A stretch of 64,000 nucleotides of DNA from an uncultured Pseudomonadales bacterium (GTDB taxonomy: Bacteria; Patescibacteriota; Microgenomatia; UBA1400; UBA1396), in contig CAZEEI010000001.1 in the NCBI GenBank assembly GCA_964511175.1, positions 23,216-87,215 of the forward strand, given 5' to 3'. Under the pieces are notes generated by a model. It had not been told where the DNA came from, searched no databases, and was given only the letters and a program-made list of their open reading frames with translations. Shown here one piece after another: positions 3,964 to 51,253 of the stretch (positions are counted from its first letter, which is position 1; each line of letters starts with the position of its first letter). A program made the translations under genes and the position numbers.

Positions 3964-6546
3964 ATGGCTTACGACCACCGGTCTCTTGAGAAAAAGTATA
4001 CTCAGCAGTGGCGAGAGCAACGTCTCTATGAGCCCGATTTGCGCGCCGCCGCACGGCCTTATTACAACCTCATGATGTTTCCTTATCCCTCGGCAGAAGG
4101 GCTGCACGTGGGTAACATGTATGCCTTTACCGGTGCTGACGTTCACGGCCGGTTTTACCGAATGTTGGGATTTGACGTTTTTGAACCGATTGGTTTGGAT
4201 GGTTTTGGTATTCACTCGGAGAATTACGCCATCAAAGTAGGTCGCCATCCGGCGCAGCAGGCTAAAGTCTCTGAGGATAATTTTTACCGTCAGCTGGGAG
4301 CGATCGGCAATGGATTCGCCTGGGAAGAACGCCTGGAAACTTACGATCCGGAGTATTATCGCTGGACACAGTGGCTGATGATGCAAATGTTCAAGCATGG
4401 TCTGGCTTACAAAGCCGAAGCGGCAGTGAACTGGTGTCCTTTTGACAAAACGGTTTTGGCCGACGAGCAAGTCGAGGACGGGGTGTGCGAGCGCTGTAAA
4501 AATCCGGTCGAGCGGCGCACGATGAGCTCCTGGTTTTTGCGGATTACCGATTATGCGGACCGCTTGTTGGATAATATCGACAATTACGCCTGGCAGGATG
4601 CTGAGGGGAAAACGCACCGCGGTTTGCAGTGGCCTGGTAAAGTGACCACTGCCCAGCGGAACTGGATTGGGCGCACGACTGGCTTGGATATTGATTTTGC
4701 TCTGGAAAATAGCCCGGAAAAAATTACCGTTTGGACTAAGTTTTGGGAAACGATTTTTGGTGTTACATACTTGGTTTTGGCTCCCGAGCATCCATTGGCG
4801 AGCCGCATTGCCAGCCAGTCACAAAAAACGGCTGTGGCGGAGTACATCCACTCGGCTTTGAATCGATCAGAGCAGGACCGTCAGGCTGGCCAGGAAAAAA
4901 GTGGCGTATTTACCGGTGCTTACGCCGTTAATCCGGTTAACGGTGAACGAGTACCTATCTGGATTGCCGACTATGTTTTAACGACTGTTGGAACTGGGGC
5001 GGTAATGGGTGTGCCGGCGCATGATGAGCGAGACTTTGCTTTTGCTCAGAAATTTGGTTTACCGATTATTCAGGTAGTAGCTTACGCTGACCCCCAAATC
5101 AATCAGGCAGTGGCTCGAGGAGAGCGTTCGTATGAGGGGGAAGGAGTACTTCTGCACTCTGGCCAGTTCGACGGACAAGCGGCTTGGGGAGAGGGAAAAA
5201 CGGCCATTCAAAATTGGCTGGTTAACCAAAATTGGGCGCGCGAACGAGTTAATTATCACCTACGCGATTGGCTGATCTCCCGCCAGCGTTACTGGGGGCC
5301 GCCCATTCCGTTAATCTACTGTGAACATTGTGCTGAACAGGGCAAAGGTGAGCGCCCCGAATTGCCTGGCTGGTATGCGGTGCCGGAAGCGGATTTACCG
5401 GTTCTTTTGCCAGAAATTAGCGACTTCAAACCCAAGGGTGACGGTACTTCGCCGCTGGCCAACGCGCCAGACGACTGGAAGTCGGCCGCCTGTCCAGTTT
5501 GTGGCCAACCGGCCAAACGCGAGCTCGATGTTTCCGATACTTTTTTGGATTCGGCTTGGTATTTTCTGCGCTATCCCTGGTTGGGCGAAAACGATCACCC
5601 GTTCGGAACGGTTCTGCCGTTTGAAAACCTCAAGGAGAATCGACCTGGAACGATTCTTCCAGAGGTAGCTGAGCGCCAGAAGCGTTCTCAACTTAGCTGG
5701 TTCCCGGTTGACGCCTATATCGGCGGTGCCGAGCACGCAGTGTTGCACCTGCTTTATGCCCGCTTTGTCACCATGGCTCTGCACGATTGGGGTTATTTAC
5801 CCAGTGATGAACCTTTTCCATTTTTATTCGGCCACGGACTGATCATCAAGGACGGCGCCAAAATGAGTAAGTCGCGCGGCAATGTGGTTAATCCGGACGA
5901 GTATATCGCCAAGTACGGCGCTGACGCTCTGCGTGCCTATCTGATGTTTTTGGGACCCTATGACCAGGGCGGCGACTTTCGCGACACCGGTATGAGTGGC
6001 ATGTACAAGTGGCTGACGCGGATTTGGGATCAATTCAGCCAAATTTCGGGCGAGGCGACTGATCCAGATCTCAAGCGAAAACTCCACCAAGTAATTGCAG
6101 CTAATACCGCTGATCTCTACCAGTTTAAATACAATACCTGTTTAGCTCGGCTTATGGAGGTGGTTAACCTCTGGCGTGAAGGGGAGACGATGGGGCGGCC
6201 GGAAGCGATTATTTTCCTCCAGCTGTTGGCACCGTTTGCGCCGTTTCTAACCGAGGCGCTTTACCAGCAAATTCAGGATAAAAACGGAACGAGTGTGTTC
6301 CATTCGATTCATAGTTCAATTTGGCCGCCAGCTAATTCGGCCCTACTCGAGGCGGAAACAATCCCGATCGCCATTCAGGTCAATGGCAAACTGCGGGGTG
6401 TGATCGAAGTTAATCTGCAGCAGGCAACTGATCAGGAGTTTTTAACAACTAAGGCCAAGCAACACGAAACAGTACAGCGTTTTCTCACCGCCGAATCCAA
6501 AAAAGTTATTGTCGTTCCCGGTAAAATTATCAACTTTGTGATCTAA
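3964..6546 (+). CDS. leuS: Leucyl-tRNA synthetase
   Basis: MAYDHRSLEKKYTQQWREQRLYEPD... class I LeuRS N-terminus with an HVGN (HIGH-type) motif and a KMSKS motif (GAKMSKSRGN). Start chosen at ATG 3964 inside the longer track ORF 3691..6546. Confidence 0.9.
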   Translation: MAYDHRSLEKKYTQQWREQRLYEPDLRAAARPYYNLMMFPYPSAEGLHVGNMYAFTGADVHGRFYRMLGFDVFEPIGLDGFGIHSENYAIKVGRHPAQQAKVSEDNFYRQLGAIGNGFAWEERLETYDPEYYRWTQWLMMQMFKHGLAYKAEAAVNWCPFDKTVLADEQVEDGVCERCKNPVERRTMSSWFLRITDYADRLLDNIDNYAWQDAEGKTHRGLQWPGKVTTAQRNWIGRTTGLDIDFALENSPEKITVWTKFWETIFGVTYLVLAPEHPLASRIASQSQKTAVAEYIHSALNRSEQDRQAGQEKSGVFTGAYAVNPVNGERVPIWIADYVLTTVGTGAVMGVPAHDERDFAFAQKFGLPIIQVVAYADPQINQAVARGERSYEGEGVLLHSGQFDGQAAWGEGKTAIQNWLVNQNWARERVNYHLRDWLISRQRYWGPPIPLIYCEHCAEQGKGERPELPGWYAVPEADLPVLLPEISDFKPKGDGTSPLANAPDDWKSAACPVCGQPAKRELDVSDTFLDSAWYFLRYPWLGENDHPFGTVLPFENLKENRPGTILPEVAERQKRSQLSWFPVDAYIGGAEHAVLHLLYARFVTMALHDWGYLPSDEPFPFLFGHGLIIKDGAKMSKSRGNVVNPDEYIAKYGADALRAYLMFLGPYDQGGDFRDTGMSGMYKWLTRIWDQFSQISGEATDPDLKRKLHQVIAANTADLYQFKYNTCLARLMEVVNLWREGETMGRPEAIIFLQLLAPFAPFLTEALYQQIQDKNGTSVFHSIHSSIWPPANSALLEAETIPIAIQVNGKLRGVIEVNLQQATDQEFLTTKAKQHETVQRFLTAESKKVIVVPGKIINFVI

Positions 6547-9423: not shown

Positions 9424-10821
9424 CTATGTTACTGAATGATGATAAAAAAATATAGATATCAATATTAGGATATATGAACCAGTCAATAAGCTTACGGCGA
9501 AGTGATCCAGAGAAAAAATGGGTACAAAACTCATTAATAAAATAAGATAAAAAGAGTACAAATAGTTAACAGAAAATGAAAAAGATAAGAGTAAAATAAT
9601 TGTCCCAATTCCTAAATCAATAACAAGAGATAAGAGAGAGGAGTGGATTGGTTGCAGGAATCTACCCTGGAAAAGAGCAATATTAGCATTTGCCGCTAGC
9701 CGTACATTTTGATTCAATCCTTCCCCCCAAATAATCCAGTGAGGCCAGGCTTGGCAAGACGATTTTAATAAGTCAGCTCGCCGGATAAACGAGGGGGCGG
9801 GTAGGTAATTTTGTCCCAAGATCACTACTGCCTGCCAGACAAGAGTACCTAAAATAATGAAGGCAACCGGTAGTATTAGACGTATTTTGGGTTGATTTTT
9901 AAGCCAAGTATTTAAGTTCCGCCTCTGATGATAAAGAATAAAAAGGAGCGGCAAAGAAGCCAAGGCAGTTATTGATTCGGTAATTACGATGGTTGAAAAA
10001 AAGATAATTATTAGCAATAAAATACCTATAGATAAATGTTTTTTTTTGAAAAGCTGGGTCCAAGCGTAGACCACACCCACCACCATCCAGGCGGCTAAGA
10101 TATTAGGGTGAGGAGTGCTGCCATAGGGTAAGCTCCGCACCATTGGCCAGAAATCACTGGTGGCAAGAAAGGAGCTGGCTCGGAACACTGGCTCACCAAA
10201 AAGCCAATAAGGCCCTAGCGATTTTTGGAAAAAGAATTGATACCAAGCCAAAAATGCCTGTAGCAGGACACTACCAATTACCGCCGATGACAAATGTTTT
10301 TGTACCCAGGTTCGATTTTGCGACCAAAATAACAGTAATAGGCCAGGACCGGTTAGCCAGCCTAGTAAAAACAGCAGGGAAGCCAGCGGTCGATCAGTGG
10401 TAAAACTGCGGCCAATTATCATTAAAATCAGCCCAAAGGTTAAGACAATTCTGCTCCGCAAACCAAAAAACGTCAAAATAAGCCGCACAGTGGTTTTACC
10501 TCTGGCAACTAACCGCTTTGCTGACACCTTTTGAGTTATTTGATAATAGTTCAACAACCACAGCAACCAAATCAGTAGAGAACTGACGTATAGTTTGGGC
10601 GCCCAATAATCGATGAACACACCATTTAAATAAGACCAAGCCGGACGACTAACCGCAAAAAGATTGATTGGCAAAAACAAAACTGCTAGATAAAATACCA
10701 CTAGCTTAATGTTTTCGATATTAATATATCTTTTGATGTTAATAATTATACTCATAACACTATAAGTAATGTTTGATAGAGTATATATCATCATTGTTTC
10801 TCGATTAATCTCACGATACAA
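9424..10821 (-). CDS. Polytopic membrane protein, O-antigen ligase/Wzy-like or glycosyltransferase-like (uncertain)
   Basis: 465 aa with at least 10 hydrophobic helices. The C-terminal third is encoded in very AT-rich DNA. Confidence 0.4.
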   Translation of the reverse strand: MYREINRETMMIYTLSNITYSVMSIIINIKRYINIENIKLVVFYLAVLFLPINLFAVSRPAWSYLNGVFIDYWAPKLYVSSLLIWLLWLLNYYQITQKVSAKRLVARGKTTVRLILTFFGLRSRIVLTFGLILMIIGRSFTTDRPLASLLFLLGWLTGPGLLLLFWSQNRTWVQKHLSSAVIGSVLLQAFLAWYQFFFQKSLGPYWLFGEPVFRASSFLATSDFWPMVRSLPYGSTPHPNILAAWMVVGVVYAWTQLFKKKHLSIGILLLIIIFFSTIVITESITALASLPLLFILYHQRRNLNTWLKNQPKIRLILPVAFIILGTLVWQAVVILGQNYLPAPSFIRRADLLKSSCQAWPHWIIWGEGLNQNVRLAANANIALFQGRFLQPIHSSLLSLVIDLGIGTIILLLSFSFSVNYLYSFYLILLMSFVPIFSLDHFAVSLLTGSYILILISIFFYHHSVT

Positions 10822-10830
10822 TCAACCACG

Positions 10831-26345: not shown

Positions 26346-26418
26346 TTGATAGATAAGCCCGAACCAGATTTTCGCCAGGATTCTCCAATAAAGCGGCCTT
26401 CTGTTATACTGGTTTCCT

Positions 26419-33078: not shown

Positions 33079-33085
33079 GGAGCTA

Positions 33086-35185
33086 TTATAACCTTTTACC
33101 GGAAATGGAGGCTTCGATTACTTTCAACCGCTCGGTGGCGAACTCCTCGCCAGGCTTAAGCTGGAGAATTTTTTGATATTGGTCAACGGCGGCTGACCAA
33201 TCTCCGGCCGACTCCAAAAACTGGCCAAACTCGTGTCGAGCCTCTTCATAGTTGGGCTTAAGAGTGATGGCTTGGGTGAAGGCGGCGCGGGCGTCGTCGT
33301 TGCGGTGGAGACCACCCAGGATTACGGCACGATTAAAGTAAATTTGGGGATCAGTAGGAGCCAATTGTGCGGCCTGTTCGAGAGCGGCGAGTGCTTCGTC
33401 GTAGTAGCGGGGATCCAGCTTGGCCAAATAAAGGAACACTTTGGCGCGTGATTTCCAAAAAGACAGATGTACCGGATTGAGGGTAACAGCGCGATTAGTG
33501 GCAGCAATGGCTTCGTTGCCTAGTTGGGCTGCAATGGTGGCATCGGTTGGTGCGGCAGCGGTGGCTAAATTCGCCATAAAAGTAGCGGCTTCATCCCAAT
33601 ATAGAGCTTCGCGGGAGGCGCGCTGAGTGAGTTGTTGGAAAAGCTGATAGGCGATGAGTGGCTGTTGGCGCAGTACTTGGCGCTTAGCTTGCGCGAGTAG
33701 TCGGTCATTGGCCCAGGTTCGACAAACTGATAGTAAGGCCAAACCGGTAGCCAGACCCACAACGAGGGTTAGTAGCGAAGAACCGTCCAACTCTACTTCC
33801 CATTCGTCTGAGATCCGATCTCGTTTTAGGGTTACACCCTCCAGGCGTGATGTAGCGGCAGATTCGATCTCATTGATAAAAATCCAAGCCGGCATGAGGA
33901 AGAAAAGAACACCTACCGTTACCGTGGAAAAACCGAAAAAGTTTGATACGGCTAATGCTAGGTAACTGGCCAAAATAGCTGTCGCCAGGGTATTGTGCCG
34001 CCGCAGTAACTGCCAAATCACCGCCCCCATGAGCGTTAGGAGAGCAATGAGTCCAACCGCGCCGGTGGTGGCAAGCGCGTTAAGAAATTCATTGTGCGCT
34101 TTGTTATAGAGAAAATTCCATTCGGACACGGTGTTGTGGGCCAGGGGGCGGTCACGGTAGTAACTATAGGCGAAGGTTTCCACACCGGAACCAAAGAGTG
34201 GGTATCGCTGCCAGACGGCCAAAGCCCCGGACCAAACGATTTGGCGAATAGCACCAGAGTTGGTGCCGCCGTTTTCTAGAACGGTGCCGACCGAAGGAGC
34301 GGCGGGACGCTCAATGGTAGCGGCGGATGGTGGTGAGCTAGGTGAAAAGCGGGCGATCCATTTGAAAGCAGTCGGCGTAAAGGGAGTGCCAAAAAGGAGG
34401 GCAAGAATAACAAATGACGCCAGGAGGGTTACACCCTGAGCAATCCCACGCCTGGAGGGTGACACCCTCAGCCAGACGGCACCGCTAGCGACAAATCCTA
34501 GCAGGCCAGAACGCGAGCCGGTAAATAGCAATACAGTGAAAAACAGCGGTATGCTGGCGGCGCTTAACCAACGTTCCAATTTGGTTCGAGATTGTTGCCA
34601 GAGCCACAACGATAAAGGTAGCAACATAATCAAGTAGGCGGCCAACCAATTAGGCTGGCCAAGAGTGCCAAAGACCCGCGTTTGTACATCCTGTACCCAG
34701 CAACTTACCGAAAATTCACCCGTGATTAAAACGCAGCTTGGCGAAACACCAAAATGTTCCGGTAGGGCATAAAGAGCCACACCAATACCGGCATAAACCA
34801 CTGAACGCACGAGCGGTTTTAGATCATGCCGATCCAAATTACTGACCGCCGCAAAATAAAGTGTTAAGTAGGCTAAAGTCGAAAGCAGTCCGCCGTGGAA
34901 ACGCGAATAATAGCCGAAGATACTGGTGGCAACGTGAATCGAAGTAACTGTGGAAAGCAACTGACTAGTAAGGAAGAAAATGATCGGCCAAAACAAAAGA
35001 GTCCGCTGAAAGATAATTTTTTTAGCCCGAATCATTCGGACCAACCATAAGCCGGCAATCAGGCTGGTGTAGGCGTAAACCAGCATCATTTTATTGAATT
35101 CGAACAGTTCTTCATTGACCGCCGTGAAAGCAAAGGGGACGGTGATTACTAAGGCAGAAAACAACCAAACAATGGCACGGCGCAT
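33086..35185 (-). CDS. O-antigen ligase (Wzy_C)-like polytopic membrane protein fused to C-terminal TPR repeats
   Basis: N-terminal ~12 TM region with NKAHNEFLNALATTG. C-terminal TPR-like repeats (AAFTQAITLKPNYEEARHEFGQFLESAGDWSAAVDQYQKILQLKP). Contains copies of the dispersed GC-rich palindromic repeat (33828-33850, 34420-34468). Confidence 0.6.
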   Translation of the reverse strand: MRRAIVWLFSALVITVPFAFTAVNEELFEFNKMMLVYAYTSLIAGLWLVRMIRAKKIIFQRTLLFWPIIFFLTSQLLSTVTSIHVATSIFGYYSRFHGGLLSTLAYLTLYFAAVSNLDRHDLKPLVRSVVYAGIGVALYALPEHFGVSPSCVLITGEFSVSCWVQDVQTRVFGTLGQPNWLAAYLIMLLPLSLWLWQQSRTKLERWLSAASIPLFFTVLLFTGSRSGLLGFVASGAVWLRVSPSRRGIAQGVTLLASFVILALLFGTPFTPTAFKWIARFSPSSPPSAATIERPAAPSVGTVLENGGTNSGAIRQIVWSGALAVWQRYPLFGSGVETFAYSYYRDRPLAHNTVSEWNFLYNKAHNEFLNALATTGAVGLIALLTLMGAVIWQLLRRHNTLATAILASYLALAVSNFFGFSTVTVGVLFFLMPAWIFINEIESAATSRLEGVTLKRDRISDEWEVELDGSSLLTLVVGLATGLALLSVCRTWANDRLLAQAKRQVLRQQPLIAYQLFQQLTQRASREALYWDEAATFMANLATAAAPTDATIAAQLGNEAIAATNRAVTLNPVHLSFWKSRAKVFLYLAKLDPRYYDEALAALEQAAQLAPTDPQIYFNRAVILGGLHRNDDARAAFTQAITLKPNYEEARHEFGQFLESAGDWSAAVDQYQKILQLKPGEEFATERLKVIEASISGKRL

Positions 35186-43593: not shown

Positions 43594-44628
43594 ATGAACA
43601 GTTTAAATCCAGAAAATCGTCGTCGCCAAGTTAGGCTGGCTTTAGCCACCCAAGCACAATGGGAAAGTGATCGTGGCTTTGCCAATCATCATAGTTTGGA
43701 GGAATTAGAAATTGCGGAAGACCTACCCGCTTTGGAGAAACTGCCTATCGAGGGTATTCTAGCCACTATTCTTGATGAATTTTTAGAGCTATATGAAGCG
43801 ATCATTCATCCCGAACCTAAAGAGGCAGAGCTATTAGAGCTAGCCGACGCCGCCGCCTTTGCTTTACGACTTTACGCGGAGTTACTGAAAGTTCGTGACG
43901 AACGGGGAGCCACTTACTCCCAAGCCGAATTTCGACAGATGACTCAATTAGTATCCCAGGCTATGCTGGCAGGAGAAGTGGTAGAGTTTGCCAATATTGA
44001 ACGAAGTATGTCGGAAAAAGACACTATTCTCACCGACCTGCGACAATTGATGACCGTGGTCTTGAAAACCTATTGTCATTTGGTTGGTATTGAGATACCG
44101 GAGGCCGAGTTAGTGGCTATAGTCGAAGACGTTGGTAACATTGCGGGCGCCTTATTACTGGAAGGTGGGGAAATAACAAAATTAGTGAGAGCGAGTTTAC
44201 TTCAATTGATGCTAAGACCGATTGTTCAGGCTAGTCCTGACGGGCATGCCACCGTAGTTAATCCCCAAGCTTCGGAGGAGGTGATGCTTGATGCCTACGC
44301 GGCAATCGAAGAGTTTGCCCGCAAACATTATGGTTACGAAAACTTATGGCTGCTGGTGGGCTCACTTTATTCGCCGCCGGTTGGTAAAAATGTTTTAAAT
44401 TATCCTTATCCTTTGCCTGAAGGTGTGGATTCTTATCGTGAATTTAAGTTAATACGTAATCATTTCCCAGGCAGAGTGATTCCTTTAGATTATGATGTTT
44501 ATCGAGATACTCCTCAGGCCTACATTCGACGCTGGGAATTCAATCATCCTGGCCAAAGCTTTACTACTGATTTTATGATTCAAGCCAGAATACCCAATTT
44601 TGATAGTATTGCTGCCGAATTGCGATAA
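43594..44628 (+). CDS. Hypothetical protein with a possible MazG-like all-alpha NTP-pyrophosphatase N-terminal region
   Basis: ILDEFLELYEAI...EAELLELADAAAFALRLYAEL resembles the MazG E-x2-E...E-x2-D layout. 344 aa, sitting between dut and tmk. Confidence 0.35.
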   Translation: MNSLNPENRRRQVRLALATQAQWESDRGFANHHSLEELEIAEDLPALEKLPIEGILATILDEFLELYEAIIHPEPKEAELLELADAAAFALRLYAELLKVRDERGATYSQAEFRQMTQLVSQAMLAGEVVEFANIERSMSEKDTILTDLRQLMTVVLKTYCHLVGIEIPEAELVAIVEDVGNIAGALLLEGGEITKLVRASLLQLMLRPIVQASPDGHATVVNPQASEEVMLDAYAAIEEFARKHYGYENLWLLVGSLYSPPVGKNVLNYPYPLPEGVDSYREFKLIRNHFPGRVIPLDYDVYRDTPQAYIRRWEFNHPGQSFTTDFMIQARIPNFDSIAAELR

Positions 44629-44653: not shown

Positions 44654-45301
44654 ATGAATCAACATCCAGATCACCAAGGTTGGCTAATTTCCTTTGAGGG
44701 CGGCGAGGGTGCCGGTAAATCGGTGCAGATTAAGTTACTGCGGGATCACTTGCATTCTTGCGGCCAAGACGTGGTGGTTTTGCGCGAGCCAGGTGGTACG
44801 ACCATTTCTGAACAGATCCGTGAGGTAGTGCTTTCGGCCAAAAACGTGGGTATTGCTTACACTACGGAGGTGTTATTGTTCCAAGCAGCCCGCGCCCAAC
44901 TGTACCGCGAAATTGTTTTACCGAGTCTACAGGTAGGCAAAATTGTGTTAATGGACCGAACGCGCGACTCTTCCGTGGTGTACCAGGGTATGGTGCGCGG
45001 TTTTGGGGTAGATTTAATCGAACAGCTCAACAACATTTCTACCGAAAGCACCTATCCCGATATTACCTTTCTGCTCAATGTTACGCCGGAAGTCGGCCTG
45101 GAACGACGCCACGGTACCGATAAAATGGATCGTTTAGACATGGAGTCACGTGATTTCCACGAGAGCGTGCGCCAAGCTTATTTACAAGTAGCCGAACAAG
45201 ATACGCGTGGCCGGTGGGTAGTGGTTGACGCCGATCGCTCCATTGAGTCTATGGAAGCAGACATTTGGAAAGAAGTGCACCGCCGGGGAGTGTGCGCTTG
45301 A
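44654..45301 (+). CDS. tmk: Thymidylate kinase
   Basis: LISFEGGEGAGKSVQ P-loop, REPGGT and LMDRTRDSSVVYQG. Confidence 0.85.
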   Translation: MNQHPDHQGWLISFEGGEGAGKSVQIKLLRDHLHSCGQDVVVLREPGGTTISEQIREVVLSAKNVGIAYTTEVLLFQAARAQLYREIVLPSLQVGKIVLMDRTRDSSVVYQGMVRGFGVDLIEQLNNISTESTYPDITFLLNVTPEVGLERRHGTDKMDRLDMESRDFHESVRQAYLQVAEQDTRGRWVVVDADRSIESMEADIWKEVHRRGVCA

Positions 45302-46149
45302 GGCGCATCGGGGCGCATTTAACATCAGCCGGCGGGCCAGAACGCGCGGTGGATCGTGCCTTAGCCATTGGTGCTGATTGTTTGCAGATTTTTTCTGGGT
45401 CGCCGCGGGCGTGGGCCCGCCGGCCGCTGCACGAGGATGGGTTAAGATCTTTCCAAAAATACAGTTTAGAACATGATATTCGGCCAATCTTCGTACACGC
45501 TTTATATTTAGTGAACCTAGCAAGCGACCAAACAGAACTTGTGCAAAAGTCGGTAAAAGTATTGATTCATGATTTAAAGTTTGGGGCAGGTTTTAATTCG
45601 GCCGGGGTAGTAGTCCATCTAGGTTCCCATCAGGGGAGGGGTTGGCTGGCTGTCAGAGAGAATGTTGCTTTGCTAATTAAAAAAATCATCGACGAAGCCG
45701 CAGCTGATACGCCATTTTTAATCGAAAACTCAGCCGGCCAAAACGGTAAACTCTGTTCCGATCTAAGCGAAGTTCGTTGGTTGCTAGATACGGTGGCGCG
45801 GCCCAGCCTAGGCTGGTGCTACGACACCTGCCACGGCTGGGCCGCGGGTTACTACGCCTCCCAACCACAGTTAGGCGGCAAAAACTTATTAACAGAAGTG
45901 GATCGGTTAGAACTTTGGCCAACTTTGCGTTGTCTTCACGTCAATGATTCGCGTGATCCCTTCGGCGATGGGCGCGACCGGCACGATAATATCGGCAAAG
46001 GACAGATCGACTTGACGGAGTTTAAGATGCTGTTAAATCATGCCCAAGCACAAGAGATACCGATTATTACGGAAGCGCCAGGCTTGGATGGCAATGGACC
46101 TGATAGCTATAATCTAGAAGAAATTAAAAAACTAGTTAGCGTCGTTTAG
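45265..46149 (+). CDS. nfo: Endonuclease IV (AP endonuclease family 2); the true start is probably the GTG/TTG near 45292-45298
   Basis: RIGAHLTSAGG..., HALYLVNLAS, VVHLGSH, LIENSAGQ and DTCHGWAAGY are the xylose-isomerase-like TIM-barrel Nfo motifs. Confidence 0.8.
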   Translation: MERSAPPGSVRLRRIGAHLTSAGGPERAVDRALAIGADCLQIFSGSPRAWARRPLHEDGLRSFQKYSLEHDIRPIFVHALYLVNLASDQTELVQKSVKVLIHDLKFGAGFNSAGVVVHLGSHQGRGWLAVRENVALLIKKIIDEAAADTPFLIENSAGQNGKLCSDLSEVRWLLDTVARPSLGWCYDTCHGWAAGYYASQPQLGGKNLLTEVDRLELWPTLRCLHVNDSRDPFGDGRDRHDNIGKGQIDLTEFKMLLNHAQAQEIPIITEAPGLDGNGPDSYNLEEIKKLVSVV

Positions 46150-46882
46150 CTTTTTCTGACTGACGTTCACTACGTTCGCCTAAATCTAATGCGAGCTTGA
46201 CTTGAGTTGCGGCGACTTCATCTTGTAATCGAGTAATACGAGCGTAATGTTCTTCTTGAGCCTGCTGTTTAGCTACTATTTTTAGTTCTTGTTTTTGGTA
46301 ACGGCGCCGCGATCGTTGTAGCCGTCGAGTACCGGCTAAAACACGGTTGGCTACCAAAGTGGGGTTCACTGTTTGCAGATTAGTATCCTCATTCGCCGCC
46401 AGAGCGATTATTTTTTGACGGGCTGCTGTATATTTTTCTCCGATTGGCGTTTCTGCTGTACAATCAAGTAATGTGCAAGCTATTGTCACCACCAAACAGG
46501 CTGCAAATAATCCCGGGTAGAGCTCTATTTTCTCATCATAGGTAAGTGCAGAAACTTTAAGGATCAAAAAAAGAGCGGCTGGTGTAACCAACGTGAGTAT
46601 TAAACGAGCGAACCTACGGTCTCTCCGAGCATCACGGTATTCTTGGCAAACTTCGATCGCCTGTTGCAATTCAACAGGTAGATCCTGCCATTCAGCATCA
46701 CGTTGGGACTGTATTGCTGCTGCTAACTCATTAGCTCGAGGAGTAGAGCCAGAATTCAGTGGTGCAGTTGCTAGTTCAAGTAAACTTTCGTTCCAAGTTT
46801 GTCCGTCATCACGCGAGTAATCTACGATCAAAACTTCTTCTGGCGCAAGTTCGGATTGCTTTTCTAATAATTGATGTCTCAT
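46136..46882 (-). CDS. Paralog A of a 4-gene tandem family: N-terminal soluble domain (IEVCQEYRDAR motif), two TM helices, basic coiled-coil C-terminus
   Basis: Shares an N-terminal h-h-D/E-Y-x-x-DDG motif and an I-x-x-CQEY-x-x-AR motif followed by 2 TM with paralog B. 248 aa. Confidence 0.5.
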   Translation of the reverse strand: MRHQLLEKQSELAPEEVLIVDYSRDDGQTWNESLLELATAPLNSGSTPRANELAAAIQSQRDAEWQDLPVELQQAIEVCQEYRDARRDRRFARLILTLVTPAALFLILKVSALTYDEKIELYPGLFAACLVVTIACTLLDCTAETPIGEKYTAARQKIIALAANEDTNLQTVNPTLVANRVLAGTRRLQRSRRRYQKQELKIVAKQQAQEEHYARITRLQDEVAATQVKLALDLGERSERQSEKAKRR

Positions 46883-47640
46883 GACTCGTCGATTCCAAGT
46901 CGAGCCCGAGCCTCATCTAACGCTTTCGCTTTTTCGAGAAATAGGGTTTGAGCTGCCTCTTTAGTTTGTTGTTTACGACGGCGGTGATCAGTATCCTGTT
47001 TTTGTTGGCGCAAATCACGTTGCAGAGAGCGGGTGCCGCTCAGAATACGGTCGACAAACCGATCTGGATCAGAGGTGTAAGGGCTAAGACCTAGTTGTTC
47101 AGCCAGCACTAAAACTTCATCGCGGGCTTGCTGATATCTTGTTTTGACTCGTGTGATGCTCTGTGCCAAAGCATCAGCGGGAAGGCTAGCCAAAGAATCA
47201 AGATCATTGTCGGTGGGGCCAGTGTACTTTGCGGAAGTGGCAATACCGCGTGCCAGTGAATAAGCGATTAAAGCAACAAATGGTACGCAGGCTACTTCGG
47301 TAGTAGACAGGGGCGCCCGAGAAATTATGGCCAGTAGCGGCAAAATTATCGACAGCAAAATTAAAAAGGGTAAATAGGAGTCCCGCTTATATTGAAAGCG
47401 AGCCTCTTGATATTCTTGGCAAACTTCGATTATCTGACGTAATTGAGCTGGTATTTCAACCATTTCGCCGTTAGCTGATTGGCTCCGTAGTGAGTCCTGA
47501 TAGTTGGCGATTAGGTCGGCGACTACCTGGTCGATTTCCAGATCGGAGTCAACTTGTTCTGTCTCTGGATTAGCGAAAGGGCTTGCGCCATCATCGATGC
47601 CATATTCATCAATCAGAACTTCGTGATGTTGGAGTTTCAT
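46879..47640 (-). CDS. Paralog B of the tandem family (253 aa)
   Basis: EVLIDEYGIDDGASP...LRQIIEVCQEYQEARFQY..., 2 TM, then a basic C-terminal region. Its stop overlaps the start of paralog A. Confidence 0.5.
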   Translation of the reverse strand: MKLQHHEVLIDEYGIDDGASPFANPETEQVDSDLEIDQVVADLIANYQDSLRSQSANGEMVEIPAQLRQIIEVCQEYQEARFQYKRDSYLPFLILLSIILPLLAIISRAPLSTTEVACVPFVALIAYSLARGIATSAKYTGPTDNDLDSLASLPADALAQSITRVKTRYQQARDEVLVLAEQLGLSPYTSDPDRFVDRILSGTRSLQRDLRQQKQDTDHRRRKQQTKEAAQTLFLEKAKALDEARARLGIDES

Positions 47641-47695
47641 AACGTCCTATATTATATCATAATAGACGTAACCCGGCAGAGATTAGGGAACTTAA

Positions 47696-48191
47696 TTATC
47701 GGAAACGTTTAGCGCTTTTACTAATGCGTTTGGCGGCGGCCTTAGCGTCAATAGTCTTAGGGTCAAGCGTATCGCCAGCTATTCGTTTAGCTACTTTTTG
47801 GCCGGCTGTCCGCACTTTGGCCCCGGAAAGATCGTCAAACAATCCTCCCATTAACTCATTAGTTCCCTCAAAGTTATTGTTTCCGGCTAATATGTCTCCC
47901 CAGCACGACATGGCTTCAAAAAGGAATATGGCAAAACCAAGTCCACCCAAGCCAGCCAGCAGCATTTCCGGTCTGAATTTGCCATCGATCATAGTTAATG
48001 AACTAATAACCGCTAAAACCAAGAAATAAAGTGAAGGCGCGGTCATGACGGGCCTCCTGGTATTCTTGGCAAGCTTGGATAGTTTCCTGTAACGGCTTGG
48101 GCAAATCGTAAAAGTCAGCAAATGTAGGGCTATTTATTTGTTGAGTTAATCGATCGACTTCCTCTTGATTTTGCTTTGACATAGTCATCAA
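47696..48191 (-). pseudogene. Paralog C of the tandem family, split by an apparent 1-nt frameshift
   Basis: ORF 48003..48191 carries LQETIQACQEYQEARHDRAF then stops. The TM and C-terminal portion continues in another frame (47696..48046) from ...PSLYFLVLAVISS. Confidence 0.4.
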
Positions 48192-48212
48192 ATTATAGCA
48201 TACCCAGTCAGT

Positions 48213-48653
48213 TTAATAACGCTTAGCCTTGTTGGGATCAGACCCGTCTTTGCCGAAATATCGATCAAAAGCTGCTTGTGCTCCAAGGTGGTAGAGAGGT
48301 GGGTGCTCGTTTTCTGCTGGCAATTGACCGCCACTAGCGGCAACAAAATCGCGTACAAAATCCGCGGTTTTGGAGTAAACCTGATCAATTGCTAACTTTT
48401 GGATTATGGCAGTAATCCGTTCATTAGCTTGTTGATGTTGTTTGTGAGGTCGTTTTACCAAAGATAGCCATTTTGAGCGTCGTGAGGTAGTTTGGTATGC
48501 GCGGCAGGCATCAACGATTTCCCAGTAAAAATAAAGGTTGTCGGTTTTCAATTGGTCAACCAGGTCTGATAAATTAAATTTAGGTTGTTCGCCATCATGG
48601 TAAGAATAGTCTTCAACGAGAATTTCACCATGACGCAAGTTATTTTTTAACAT
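48213..48653 (-). CDS. Paralog D of the tandem family (soluble, 146 aa, no TM)
   Basis: GEILVEDYSYHDGEQP...YFYWEIVDACRAYQTTSRR retains both family motifs but lacks the TM segment. Confidence 0.45.
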   Translation of the reverse strand: MLKNNLRHGEILVEDYSYHDGEQPKFNLSDLVDQLKTDNLYFYWEIVDACRAYQTTSRRSKWLSLVKRPHKQHQQANERITAIIQKLAIDQVYSKTADFVRDFVAASGGQLPAENEHPPLYHLGAQAAFDRYFGKDGSDPNKAKRY

Positions 48654-48719
48654 GGCTTTAGTATAGCAATAAGTTAAAGATTGGATTAATCGCTATGGCT
48701 GAACGTATATAATCCAATC

Positions 48720-49643
48720 ATGGCGACGCGTTTCGACGGGCGATTGTTTGCCCAACAAAAATTAGACCAGGTAGCGCAACAAACGGCGGCTTGGTCTTTA
48801 CAAGTTGGCCGTCGGCCTAAACTAGTTTCGCTATTTCCCTATGAAGATCACGCCAGCGTGATGTACACCAAACTCAAACAAAAGGATGCTGAATCGGTAG
48901 GGGTGGAGTATGAAGCTCAACCGTTGTCTCTGCGCGCGCCGCGGCAGGAATGGTTAACTGCGGTTCACGCCGCGGCGCGCCATCCTAAAGTCGACGGTAT
49001 CCTGGTGCAAAAACCAGCCGCCCAGCGTTTTTTAGAAGTTAGGGGTGGCAAGTACACTCAATTTACTAACTGGTGGTCCGGTATTGCCGAAAGTATCCCG
49101 GTGGCTAAAGACGTTGACGGTTTGGCGCCGGTTTCCTTATTTCATCTTCAGCAACTATCCGAGCAAACTGTCCAGGGCAAGTGTCTGCCTGTAGATAATC
49201 TCGATGACTTTATTTTGCCGGCCACGGCTCAGGCAGTGATCGATATAGCCCTCGATTTGAGTTGGCAACTCACCGCACTGCGACAGAAAAAAGTTATGAT
49301 TATTGGTCGTTCGGTAATTGTTGGCCAGCCAGCGGCGTACGGTTTTCGTTTACTAGGTATCGATTGTGATTTAATTTCCTCAAAAAGTAACCTAGCCGCT
49401 ATCTTGCCAGGAGCCGATCTGATTGTTTGCGCTTCCGGTCAAGCCGATTTGATTCAGGGCAACTGGGTGAAATCTAAGGCTATTCTCATTGATGTTGGCG
49501 CCCCGCGGCCGGAGTTTACCGCAGCTTGTTATGAACGGTCAGCTAGCTGGACGCCAGTGCCGGGAGGCGTGGGGCCGGTTACCCGCGCCTGTTTGTTGGA
49601 AAACTTGGTTAAGCTCTTACATGCTACAATCAACCAGGACTAG
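48720..49643 (+). CDS. folD: Bifunctional methylenetetrahydrofolate dehydrogenase/cyclohydrolase
   Basis: DGILVQKP and TPVPGGVGPVT are FolD signatures. Confidence 0.75.
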   Translation: MATRFDGRLFAQQKLDQVAQQTAAWSLQVGRRPKLVSLFPYEDHASVMYTKLKQKDAESVGVEYEAQPLSLRAPRQEWLTAVHAAARHPKVDGILVQKPAAQRFLEVRGGKYTQFTNWWSGIAESIPVAKDVDGLAPVSLFHLQQLSEQTVQGKCLPVDNLDDFILPATAQAVIDIALDLSWQLTALRQKKVMIIGRSVIVGQPAAYGFRLLGIDCDLISSKSNLAAILPGADLIVCASGQADLIQGNWVKSKAILIDVGAPRPEFTAACYERSASWTPVPGGVGPVTRACLLENLVKLLHATINQD

Positions 49644-50422: not shown

Positions 50423-51253
50423 ATGACCAGCCGAACTGAGGGTTTTTTCTTCCGCAATAGTCGTGCGGCGCTATGTGAGCTTCTTCAAATTAAGGATTTA
50501 ACTGAAATCGATAGGGTAGATACTATTACTTTACCTGATGCAGTAGGTGATCCGATGCGACAAGCAGTAGCGGAAACACTACGCGATCCTGAGGCACGCG
50601 AACGTGATTTAAGTTTTCAATACCAAGATGGGCGAACTGTTTTGACCAATAAATTGGTTGGTTCTGAACTTAATTTAACGGCGCTTACCTCTAATAAAAC
50701 TTTAGGAACGTCGACTCAATATTCGCTTGCAGAATTACTGCACGAGACAGTTAAAATTTATTTTGGGCAACCCAAGTTTATTGCGGCTCATACCCATCCT
50801 GCTCTCACCCTAGATTTTTTACAACGACACGGGATACCAGCTAGCTCCCTGTACACCCATAAGGAGCAAGGTATTGCCCTAGATATGCCAGCACTAGTGG
50901 CTCTTTTTAGTGACCATGCTCTTTATCCCAGCGATGGTGATATCGCTAATTTAGTAAGTAACGTGCGCTACTGGCGCAATCAACTCATTGGTTCCCAGCA
51001 AGGTTTGGTTTTAATCATCAATCCCTCTTTCCACATGCCAGTGCGGGCTAAAGCACTTGGTATTCGGGAGTACAATGCCGCGGCGCAAGTGGCCGTTGTC
51101 CAGTACATGAAAAGTTTAGCTCAGCATAATCCTCACAAGGAGGATTTTCACCAGGCCAAACAACAAGCTTTATGCCGCTTTGCCAATCAAAATGGTTTAC
51201 TGGTTTTTATGGGCGACGATTTTCGTCATAATTCATTAAAAAGATTACGCTGA
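50423..51253 (+). CDS. Hypothetical protein
   Basis: 276 aa. Contains AAHTHPA, but the full JAB/MPN metalloprotease motif is not satisfied. Confidence 0.35.
   Translation: MTSRTEGFFFRNSRAALCELLQIKDLTEIDRVDTITLPDAVGDPMRQAVAETLRDPEARERDLSFQYQDGRTVLTNKLVGSELNLTALTSNKTLGTSTQYSLAELLHETVKIYFGQPKFIAAHTHPALTLDFLQRHGIPASSLYTHKEQGIALDMPALVALFSDHALYPSDGDIANLVSNVRYWRNQLIGSQQGLVLIINPSFHMPVRAKALGIREYNAAAQVAVVQYMKSLAQHNPHKEDFHQAKQQALCRFANQNGLLVFMGDDFRHNSLKRLR

Follow-up and report, generated by a model that had tools for sequence, protein, structure and literature searches.

If nfo and folD are direct neighbours in many related genomes, what are the genes that stand between them here? The window analysed, a stretch of 64,000 nucleotides (nt) of contig CAZEEI010000001.1 (assembly GCA_964511175.1), comes from the Microgenomates-type genome of an uncultured bacterium of the GTDB lineage Patescibacteriota. 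The gap between nfo, the gene for endonuclease IV, and folD is filled in this window by four co-directional minus-strand genes (46136–48653), which we call A to D. Their open reading frame (ORF) coordinates bear out what an earlier note on this DNA had said of them. Copy C is split into two ORFs, C1 and C2. Together the copies constitute an orphan family, specific to this genome, that has no detectable relative among ~15 billion public proteins. The cassette occupies a slot that has repeatedly taken insertions, in a conserved block of nucleotide-metabolism and translation genes, and is itself lineage-specific; the evidence supports an accessory rather than a housekeeping role for it.

A family of tandem paralogs

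Are the four copies related to one another? Their pairwise similarity exceeds that expected by chance. A and B align at 28% identity over 227 columns (BLASTP E = 1e-10), and in a phmmer comparison of A with all 709 six-frame ORFs of the window B is matched at 5e-13. C1 matches A at E = 1.6e-8 (phmmer; shuffle z = 16) and B at 2.6e-4 (z = 9.2). The relationship extends to the DNA, where a 55-nt stretch over the second of two protein motifs is common to A (46626–46680, minus strand, encoding LPVELQQAIEVCQEYRDAR), B (47399–47453, minus strand, 76% identical to the A copy) and C1 (48049–48103, minus strand, 64% identical to the A copy). By these comparisons A, B and C1 are clear paralogs. D is a weaker one, its case resting mainly on the N-terminus: the first ~45 residues score z = 7.7 against B (0 of 2000 shuffles) and z = 4.9 against A. 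By phmmer D reaches only 0.007–0.03, with B as its reciprocal best non-self match, and the similarity of its C-terminal half to the segment of B that follows the transmembrane (TM) helices is weak (z = 3.0). C2 is tied to the family by a position and frame that continue C1, by its two-TM architecture and by the modest similarity of its tail to that of A (z = 4.2). D and C2 are thus the weakest links of the set.

Two motifs characterize the family. The first, near the N-terminus, has the consensus h-h-h-x-[DE]-Y-x-x-[DH]-D-G (h, hydrophobic) and is present in A, B and D (EILVEDYSYHDGEQ in D); the earlier note had given it to every copy, which holds for these three but not for C. The second, motif 2, has the consensus L-P-x-x-L-x-x-x-I-x-x-C-Q-E-Y-x-x-A-R with invariant Cys and Tyr. 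It occurs in all four copies; the shared I-x-x-CQEY-x-x-AR first described corresponds to it in A, B and C1 (LQETIQACQEYQEAR in C1), and in D it is degenerate (EIVDACRAYQ). In a six-frame translation of the whole window the patterns [DE]Y..[DH]DG, C[QR][EA]Y and GTR.LQR are unique to the cassette. The copies arose by local duplication and then diverged to 26–28% identity. That A and B remain intact ORFs of 248 and 253 amino acids (aa) at 28% identity argues for selection keeping them open.

Are these frames genes at all? They are real coding genes. The minus-strand frames carry the usual coding signature, with G+C contents at the three codon positions (GC1/GC2/GC3) of 0.62/0.41/0.31 in A. The plus-strand ORFs within 46136–48653 are short antisense shadows of at most 101 aa, and an Rfam scan of the interval gave no RNA family. 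GC3 is lower in the cassette (0.31–0.44) than in the flanking housekeeping genes (0.49–0.53). Similarly low values (0.36–0.39) are found in several other genes of the window, among them two uncharacterized ORFs of the same block, unk344 (0.39) and unk276 (0.36).

Does the family have relatives elsewhere? Scans of all five ORFs against Pfam, NCBIfam, PADLOC and PHROGs gave no significant match, only noise: the PADLOC-DB v2 defence models matched none of the five even at E ≤ 10, and no PHROGs match had E < 0.09. A profile search of the PDB sequences gave nothing below E = 0.09, and Foldseek, run with a predicted model of A against the PDB, returned generic helical matches only (E > 0.2). The family therefore remains unrecognized, as the earlier note had it. 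Confident homology of the N-terminal domain to a housekeeping family, which that note had named as evidence to the contrary, was looked for and none was found.

Larger collections gave the same answer. A word-indexed search of 5.8e9 clusters with B returned B alone (cluster P0001), and with the family profile at E ≤ 10 it returned the window's own proteins alone. The four called proteins (B, P0001; A, P0002; D, P0003; C2, P0004) are singleton clusters, and their source is one NCBI contig of 240,198 nt together with one Logan contig. An exhaustive HMMER profile search of 1.84e9 representatives, which stand for the ~15 billion public proteins, found these four and two others, P0005 and P0006, giant repeat proteins that we rejected as spurious. 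P0005 matched the profile solely through an Asp-box-like repeat, YDYSIDGGATW. An IMG/VR scan gave no confirmed match, and tblastn matched none of 50,697 phage and 72,556 plasmid records. The lone match in a JGI metagenome (L090) lies antisense within a longer ORF, HD-domain-like by eye, and was likewise rejected as spurious.

P0005 merits a remark of its own. It is a public protein of 3240 aa made up of near-identical repeats of ~80 aa, and it begins with MCIRDR, the translation of ATGTGTATAAGAGACAG, the Nextera mosaic-end adapter. It is probably an adapter-contaminated assembly artefact.

The nfo–folD slot in related genomes

What do related genomes carry at this junction? Related loci were assembled from two sources, nine fetched by exact protein and 80 taken from GTDB species representatives by a scan with an nfo alignment; a contig search with folD alone returned no loci. 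The closest nfo proteins are at most 67% identical, and those that carry a name come from Patescibacteria (Woesebacteria, Pacebacteria and the Microgenomates group). Their contigs share a conserved block, topA-dcd-dut-x-tmk-(glyA)-nfo-[slot]-folD-(pyrH)-x-rpsB-tsf-x-frr. The gene run of the window is dcd, dut, unknown, tmk, nfo, cassette, folD, pyrH, unknown, rpsB.

In ~48 related loci folD lies downstream of nfo in the same orientation. They are direct neighbours in ~28 of these; in the other ~20, unrelated cargo of 0.3–4.7 kb lies between them. The called or recognizable cargo includes unknown helical proteins, a recurrent multi-TM protein, an EamA-like transporter and a PDDEXK nuclease; two further proteins look, by eye only, HAD-like and VanW-like. 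With adjacency in the one set and unrelated cargo in the other, adjacency is likely to be the ancestral state and the cassette an insertion.

None of the cargo belongs to the family of A to D. Among the 10,870 ORFs of 88 related loci no homolog was found by profile, phmmer or motif. Two genes of the neighbourhood served as a control: unk344 and a DUF1189 gene both have homologs in these loci. The family is thus absent from every related genome examined, the slot being empty or holding other cargo, which upholds the earlier claim that these are not housekeeping genes; a cassette conserved at fixed copy number across relatives, which would have spoken for the opposite, was found in none of the related loci. 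The same result does not sustain a second claim, that copies are gained and lost at this junction: the family is found in this genome only, so no variation in copy number is shown.

When did the cassette arrive? The paralogs are 26–28% identical to one another, whereas the housekeeping genes are 60–67% identical to their orthologs in the nearest sampled relatives, which lack the family. Either the cassette evolves much faster than the core genes or it came already diversified from an unsampled donor. There is little to mark the insertion as a mobile element or genomic island. We found no integrase, transposase, tRNA target (no tRNA within 16 kb) or flanking direct repeats, no similarity to phage, plasmid or IMG/VR sequences, and no tandem repeats or repeats around the cassette; its GC3 is just modestly lower.

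Several observations on the block and its relatives may be recorded here. In the window a 344-aa ORF (unk344; 43594–44628, plus strand) between dut and tmk has no Pfam match, but six related loci carry clear homologs of it in that position, with E down to 1e-51; it is a conserved uncharacterized protein of Patescibacteria. A 276-aa ORF (unk276; 50423–51253, plus strand; GC3 0.36) between pyrH and rpsB has no Pfam or PHROG match and no homolog in the 88 related nfo loci, and is a second orphan in another slot of the block. Other slots also receive insertions in relatives: one locus (L002) carries a Gp49/HTH (HigB/HigA-like) pair at 5087–5735 between tsf and the DUF1189 gene, and another (L004) a Y1 (IS200-type) transposase gene at 4806–5240, right after folD. 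On contig_170543 of a Woesebacteria metagenome-assembled genome (MAG; L008 and L010, 3267–7314), topA and its neighbours are fragmented into many small ORFs, which looks like an indel-rich assembly. A block of Patescibacteria type, tmk-nfo-folD-rpsB-tsf, is found in Third Party Annotation (TPA) MAG records labelled ‘uncultured Pseudomonadales bacterium’ (L011, L012, L014, L015, L017 and many others). The nfo of those records is closest to Woesebacteria and Pacebacteria, and the organism labels look wrong.

Gene layout and predicted architecture

How are the copies arranged? Gene D (48653–48213, minus strand) lies furthest to the right and encodes a soluble paralog of 146 aa. Next come C1 (48188–48003, minus strand; 61 aa), the N-terminal piece of copy C, and C2 (48046–47696, minus strand; 116 aa), which holds a two-TM hairpin with the sequence GLGGLG and a basic tail running to KSAKRFR. 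Gene B (47640–46879, minus strand; 253 aa) comprises the N-terminal motif, an acidic linker, motif 2, two TM helices, a helix–loop–helix with GTRSLQR and an Arg/Lys/Gln-rich helix. Gene A (46882–46136, minus strand; 248 aa) has the same architecture. On the left the cassette is flanked by nfo (45298–46149, plus strand; AP_endonuc_2), a member of the conserved block, and on the right by folD (48720–49643, plus strand). folD and D are divergent, with 66 nt between them, and a TATAAT stands 6 nt upstream of the folD ATG.

Are the genes translated together, as the earlier note had proposed for all four? The ATG of A overlaps the stop codon of B (ATGA). This is the sole overlap between neighbouring copies; the intergenic gaps measure 55 nt between B and C and ~24 nt between C and D. 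At the other end, the 3′ end of A overlaps the convergent 3′ end of nfo by 14 nt (46136–46149). No terminator-like site was found at this convergent end, and the overlap leaves no space for a terminator of the cassette's own on the nfo side.

Hexamers resembling a –10 element lie 3–10 nt upstream of the start codons of B, C1 and D. They are consensus matches only: TATACT at 48660–48665 (minus strand), 6 nt upstream of the start of D and preceded by TGC as in an extended –10; TATAAT at 48192–48197 (minus strand), just upstream of the C1 start and also preceded by TGC; and TATAAT at 47651–47656 (minus strand), 10 nt upstream of the start of B. With such sites close to three starts, separate and possibly leaderless transcripts for the copies seem as likely as one coupled operon. 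Across the window, 10 of 50 genes have a TATAAT-like hexamer (at least five of six matches) that ends 3–10 nt before the start codon, for example at 48700–48719 (folD), 33079–33098, 10811–10830 and 26399–26418; other genes have ribosome-binding sites of the AGGAG type. This pattern suggests that leaderless or very short-leader messenger RNAs are common in this genome.

What happened to copy C? Relative to C1, the reading frame of C2 is shifted by +1, and 44 nt (48003–48046, minus strand) belong to both ORFs, the TAG of C1 lying inside the C2 ORF. The frame change falls inside this overlap or just upstream of it, where both frames encode hydrophobic residues. Joined near ...CQEYQEARHDRA|PSLYFLVLAV..., the frames restore an A-like, colinear protein with the correct spacing from motif 2 to TM1, so that a one-base insertion or deletion in a once-intact C gene is the simplest account. 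Copy C had been described as broken by a 1-nt frameshift, and the split recurs in an independent Logan assembly (L001, run SRR8925802) that shows 0 mismatches over 12,852 nt, the region of C included. There is no long homopolymer at the site. Recoding of UGA is ruled out, the stop codon of C1 being TAG, and programmed +1 frameshifting was set aside, there being no recognizable slippery site at or before the TAG. C1 was missed by gene callers; C2 is called as a gene by public pipelines and may be expressed on its own as a two-TM protein. A Shine–Dalgarno-like hexamer, AGGAGG (48053–48058, minus strand), stands 6 nt upstream of the C2 ATG, within the QEA codons of motif 2.

How would the proteins sit with respect to the membrane? 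By hydropathy, TM helices span residues 94–112 and 121–139 in A, 88–106 and 116–134 in B, and 2–20 and 28–46 in C2; none is found by this measure in D or C1. The hairpin of A (aa 94–139) is encoded at 46466–46603 and that of B (aa 88–134) at 47239–47379, both on the minus strand. Three membrane copies and a soluble D without the TM module are thus what the earlier note had described. The N-terminal third is acidic (net –11 in A, –14 in B), and a basic stretch (RDARRDRRFAR in A) directly precedes TM1. The loop between the helices measures 8–12 residues, and Arg-rich segments follow TM2. TM2 itself is rich in small residues; after it come a helix–loop–helix ending in G-T-R-x-L-Q-R and then the long Arg/Lys/Gln-rich helix. 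Two TM helices and a basic tail had been claimed for both A and B. The TM pairs stand in both, whereas the tail is basic in A (+9, as in C2) and about neutral in B. The positive-inside rule is the basis for assigning the cytoplasmic side, and the basic stretches around TM1 and TM2 would place both termini of the A, B and C2 hairpins in the cytoplasm (N-in/C-in), with almost nothing exposed outside.

An AlphaFold2 (AF2) model of A, built from the four-sequence alignment, is of low confidence, with a predicted local distance difference test (pLDDT) score of 64.5 and a predicted template-modelling score (pTM) of 0.45. In it the region of the N-terminal motif is disordered (pLDDT < 50), motif 2 and TM1 form a single continuous helix (residues 70–113), TM2 spans 122–140, and two short helices are followed by a long one (186–247; pLDDT 79–92). 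The model of D, at pLDDT 39, is unusable. Within motif 2, predicted to form an amphipathic juxtamembrane helix, the residues L, L, I, C and Y are spaced i, i+4, i+4, i+3, i+3 and so line up as one hydrophobic seam that contains the invariant Cys and Tyr; this spacing suggests a packing or oligomerization face.

Possible roles and comparison with known systems

What might such a set of proteins do? The reading that we favour, tentatively, is that the cassette encodes a cytoplasm-facing membrane assembly with an accessory, lineage-specific role. Going by architecture, and with low confidence, the proteins would come together on the cytoplasmic side of the membrane as homo- or hetero-oligomers. 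The contacts might be made by the juxtamembrane helix, by the small-residue faces of the TM helices and by the long C-terminal helix, while the N-terminal peptide could dock a soluble partner. D, which has no anchor, and the C1 and C2 fragments might serve as non-anchored or partial subunits that modulate assembly. The role would lie outside the core function of the pathway genes on either side.

Several points weigh against this proposal. Oligomerization, docking of a partner and modulation by D or C are read from architecture alone. The topology is predicted from hydropathy and the positive-inside rule, and the models of A and D have the low scores given above. No homolog was found that ties the family to a function. 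Tandem divergence, one broken copy and a variable slot are, moreover, equally expected of genes for conflict or immunity.

Could the cassette then be a conflict module, as the earlier note had supposed in speaking of conflict, immunity or effector genes? A, B and C2 would in that case perturb membranes as two-TM effectors, in the manner of SLATT proteins, class II holins or viroporins; alternatively, they would be immunity proteins sited at the membrane. The acidic N-terminal domain would act as a sensor or auto-inhibitor and D as an antagonist or decoy, and the diversification would reflect an arms race. We regard this as possible but doubtful. It fits the variable slot, the presence in one genome, the broken copy C, and the low identity of the paralogs beside that of the housekeeping orthologs, which points to fast evolution or transfer. 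It also fits a two-TM hairpin with a charged tail (C2 being near holin size, with its GLGGLG) and the five SLATT proteins and one NS3 viroporin among the top 19 structural matches of A in BFVD. Those matches are all non-significant (E ≥ 0.05, template-modelling score 0.22–0.27), however, and come from a low-confidence model. No SLATT/DUF4231, holin, PADLOC or PHROG match was obtained, holins are about a third as large as A and B, and neither a sensor or enzymatic partner nor an endolysin, phage or mobile-element gene lies near the cassette. The slot cargo in relatives is heterogeneous and does not resemble a defence island. The earlier reading thus drew no support from defence models, partner genes, or phage and plasmid sequences.

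A more specific form of the idea seems unlikely. In it the cassette would be a conflict module at the membrane, complete without partner genes and new as a sequence family, with A, B and C2 as hairpin pore-formers or immunity proteins that D restrains or mimics, and the copies would turn over by birth and death in a recombination-permissive slot of an episymbiont of the candidate phyla radiation (CPR). The family could even have been born de novo in the slot and then expanded by duplication, which would explain the total absence of homologs among ~15 billion proteins. If a role in conflict proved true, the barely explored Patescibacteria would have yielded a compact, previously unknown family of membrane effectors or immunity proteins, and the anchored, anchorless and split copies of the cassette, side by side, would form a built-in natural experiment.

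Is the cassette instead a decaying remnant, whether cargo left behind by an unsampled mobile element or phage, or a dying duplicated array in which the split of C and the loss of the hairpin from D record erosion? The disrupted C, the degenerate motif 2 and missing hairpin of D, the GC3 below that of the flanks and the lack of relatives anywhere searched are all as such decay would have it. Yet A, B and D are intact ORFs of 146–253 aa that have kept their motifs despite deep divergence, each has a plausible start signal, and the region has no integrase, transposase, tRNA or flanking repeat and no phage or plasmid similarity; we think this quite unlikely. Finally, that the frames are chance non-coding ones, or that copy C is intact and appears split through an error of assembly or sequencing, is very improbable: the sequence is known from one sample only and C1 was not called as a gene, but the paralogy is at the protein level with conservative substitutions, GC1 > GC2 > GC3 as in coding DNA, the independent assembly is identical over 12.8 kb including C, no long homopolymer lies at the overlap, and the C1 stop is TAG, so that UGA recoding offers no explanation.

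The main present value of the cassette, taken as a membrane assembly or otherwise, is descriptive. The nfo–folD junction and other junctions of the block are recurrent insertion slots in Microgenomates-type genomes, and one lineage has filled such a slot with a family that lacks a detectable relative among the public proteins. Orphan membrane-protein genes are common in poorly sampled lineages, and the case is therefore not very surprising in itself and bears on no question of long standing. The family is novel in sequence and ordinary-looking in architecture, with no new mechanism shown so far.

How do the proteins compare with systems that are better known? SLATT proteins have been described as effectors whose linked partners are reverse transcriptases, enzymes of nucleotide signalling or GTPases. 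The cassette shares with them a helical region, a tight two-TM hairpin and a helical tail in a protein of ~200–260 aa; by hydropathy and in the AF2 model, A has two closely spaced TM helices flanked by helices. Among the top 19 BFVD matches of the A model the five SLATT-annotated viral proteins have E 0.066–0.43 and template-modelling scores of 0.22–0.27, and the top match, an orbivirus NS3 viroporin, is non-significant as well (E 0.05, score 0.23). We read these matches, with the caution due to the model, as a shared topology of helices, hairpin and helices, and not as homology. Unlike SLATT systems, the cassette is a stand-alone array of paralogs. No Pfam-A model of SLATT_1–6 or DUF4231 matched A, B, C1, C2 or D in hmmscan even at E ≤ 10, and no SMODS, SLOG, reverse transcriptase (RT), TIR or GTPase partner lies near the cassette, whose neighbours are syntenic housekeeping genes. 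The impression of a SLATT-type layout in the earlier note comes down to these non-significant structural echoes.

Class II holins and the NS3 viroporin offer a second likeness, with two TM helices, a predicted N-in/C-in arrangement and a highly charged C-terminal tail. The tandem related genes recall holin/antiholin pairs, and C2, at 116 aa, is the sole copy that is holin-like in size and topology. A class II holin is taken here as a protein of ~65–95 aa with two TM helices and a charged C-terminus, encoded beside an endolysin in a phage or prophage. A and B, at 248 and 253 aa, differ in carrying an N-terminal domain of ~90 aa and a tail of ~110 aa, no PHROG model matches, nor does any holin model even at E ≤ 10, and no lysin or phage gene flanks the cassette.

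A third likeness, to BNR/Asp-box repeats, concerns A. Its YSRDDGQTW fits S-x-D-x-G-x-T-W, and this fit accounts for a sub-threshold match of A to Pfam BNR (E 0.16; 12.5 bits against a cut-off of 27) and for the spurious match to P0005. The corresponding sequences of B (GIDDGASPF) and D (SYHDGEQPK) lack the T-W, and A has a single copy, in a region predicted to be disordered, in place of the repeats of a beta-propeller; the proteins are not BNR/Asp-box repeat proteins. A zinc-binding anti-sigma motif (HxxxCxxC) was also considered and rejected, there being a single Cys only and no zf-HC2 match.

The Inc proteins of chlamydiae are the last comparison. They have a bilobed hydrophobic hairpin that puts the two termini on the same side, bear coiled-coil tails, occur in lineage-restricted clusters of tandem paralogs, and are type III-secreted into a host-derived membrane. 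The cassette differs from them in having no evident link to a secretion system or secretion signal and no sequence similarity. Compared by architecture alone, what it shares with the Inc proteins is the hairpin, the helical tails and the lineage-restricted array of tandem paralogs.

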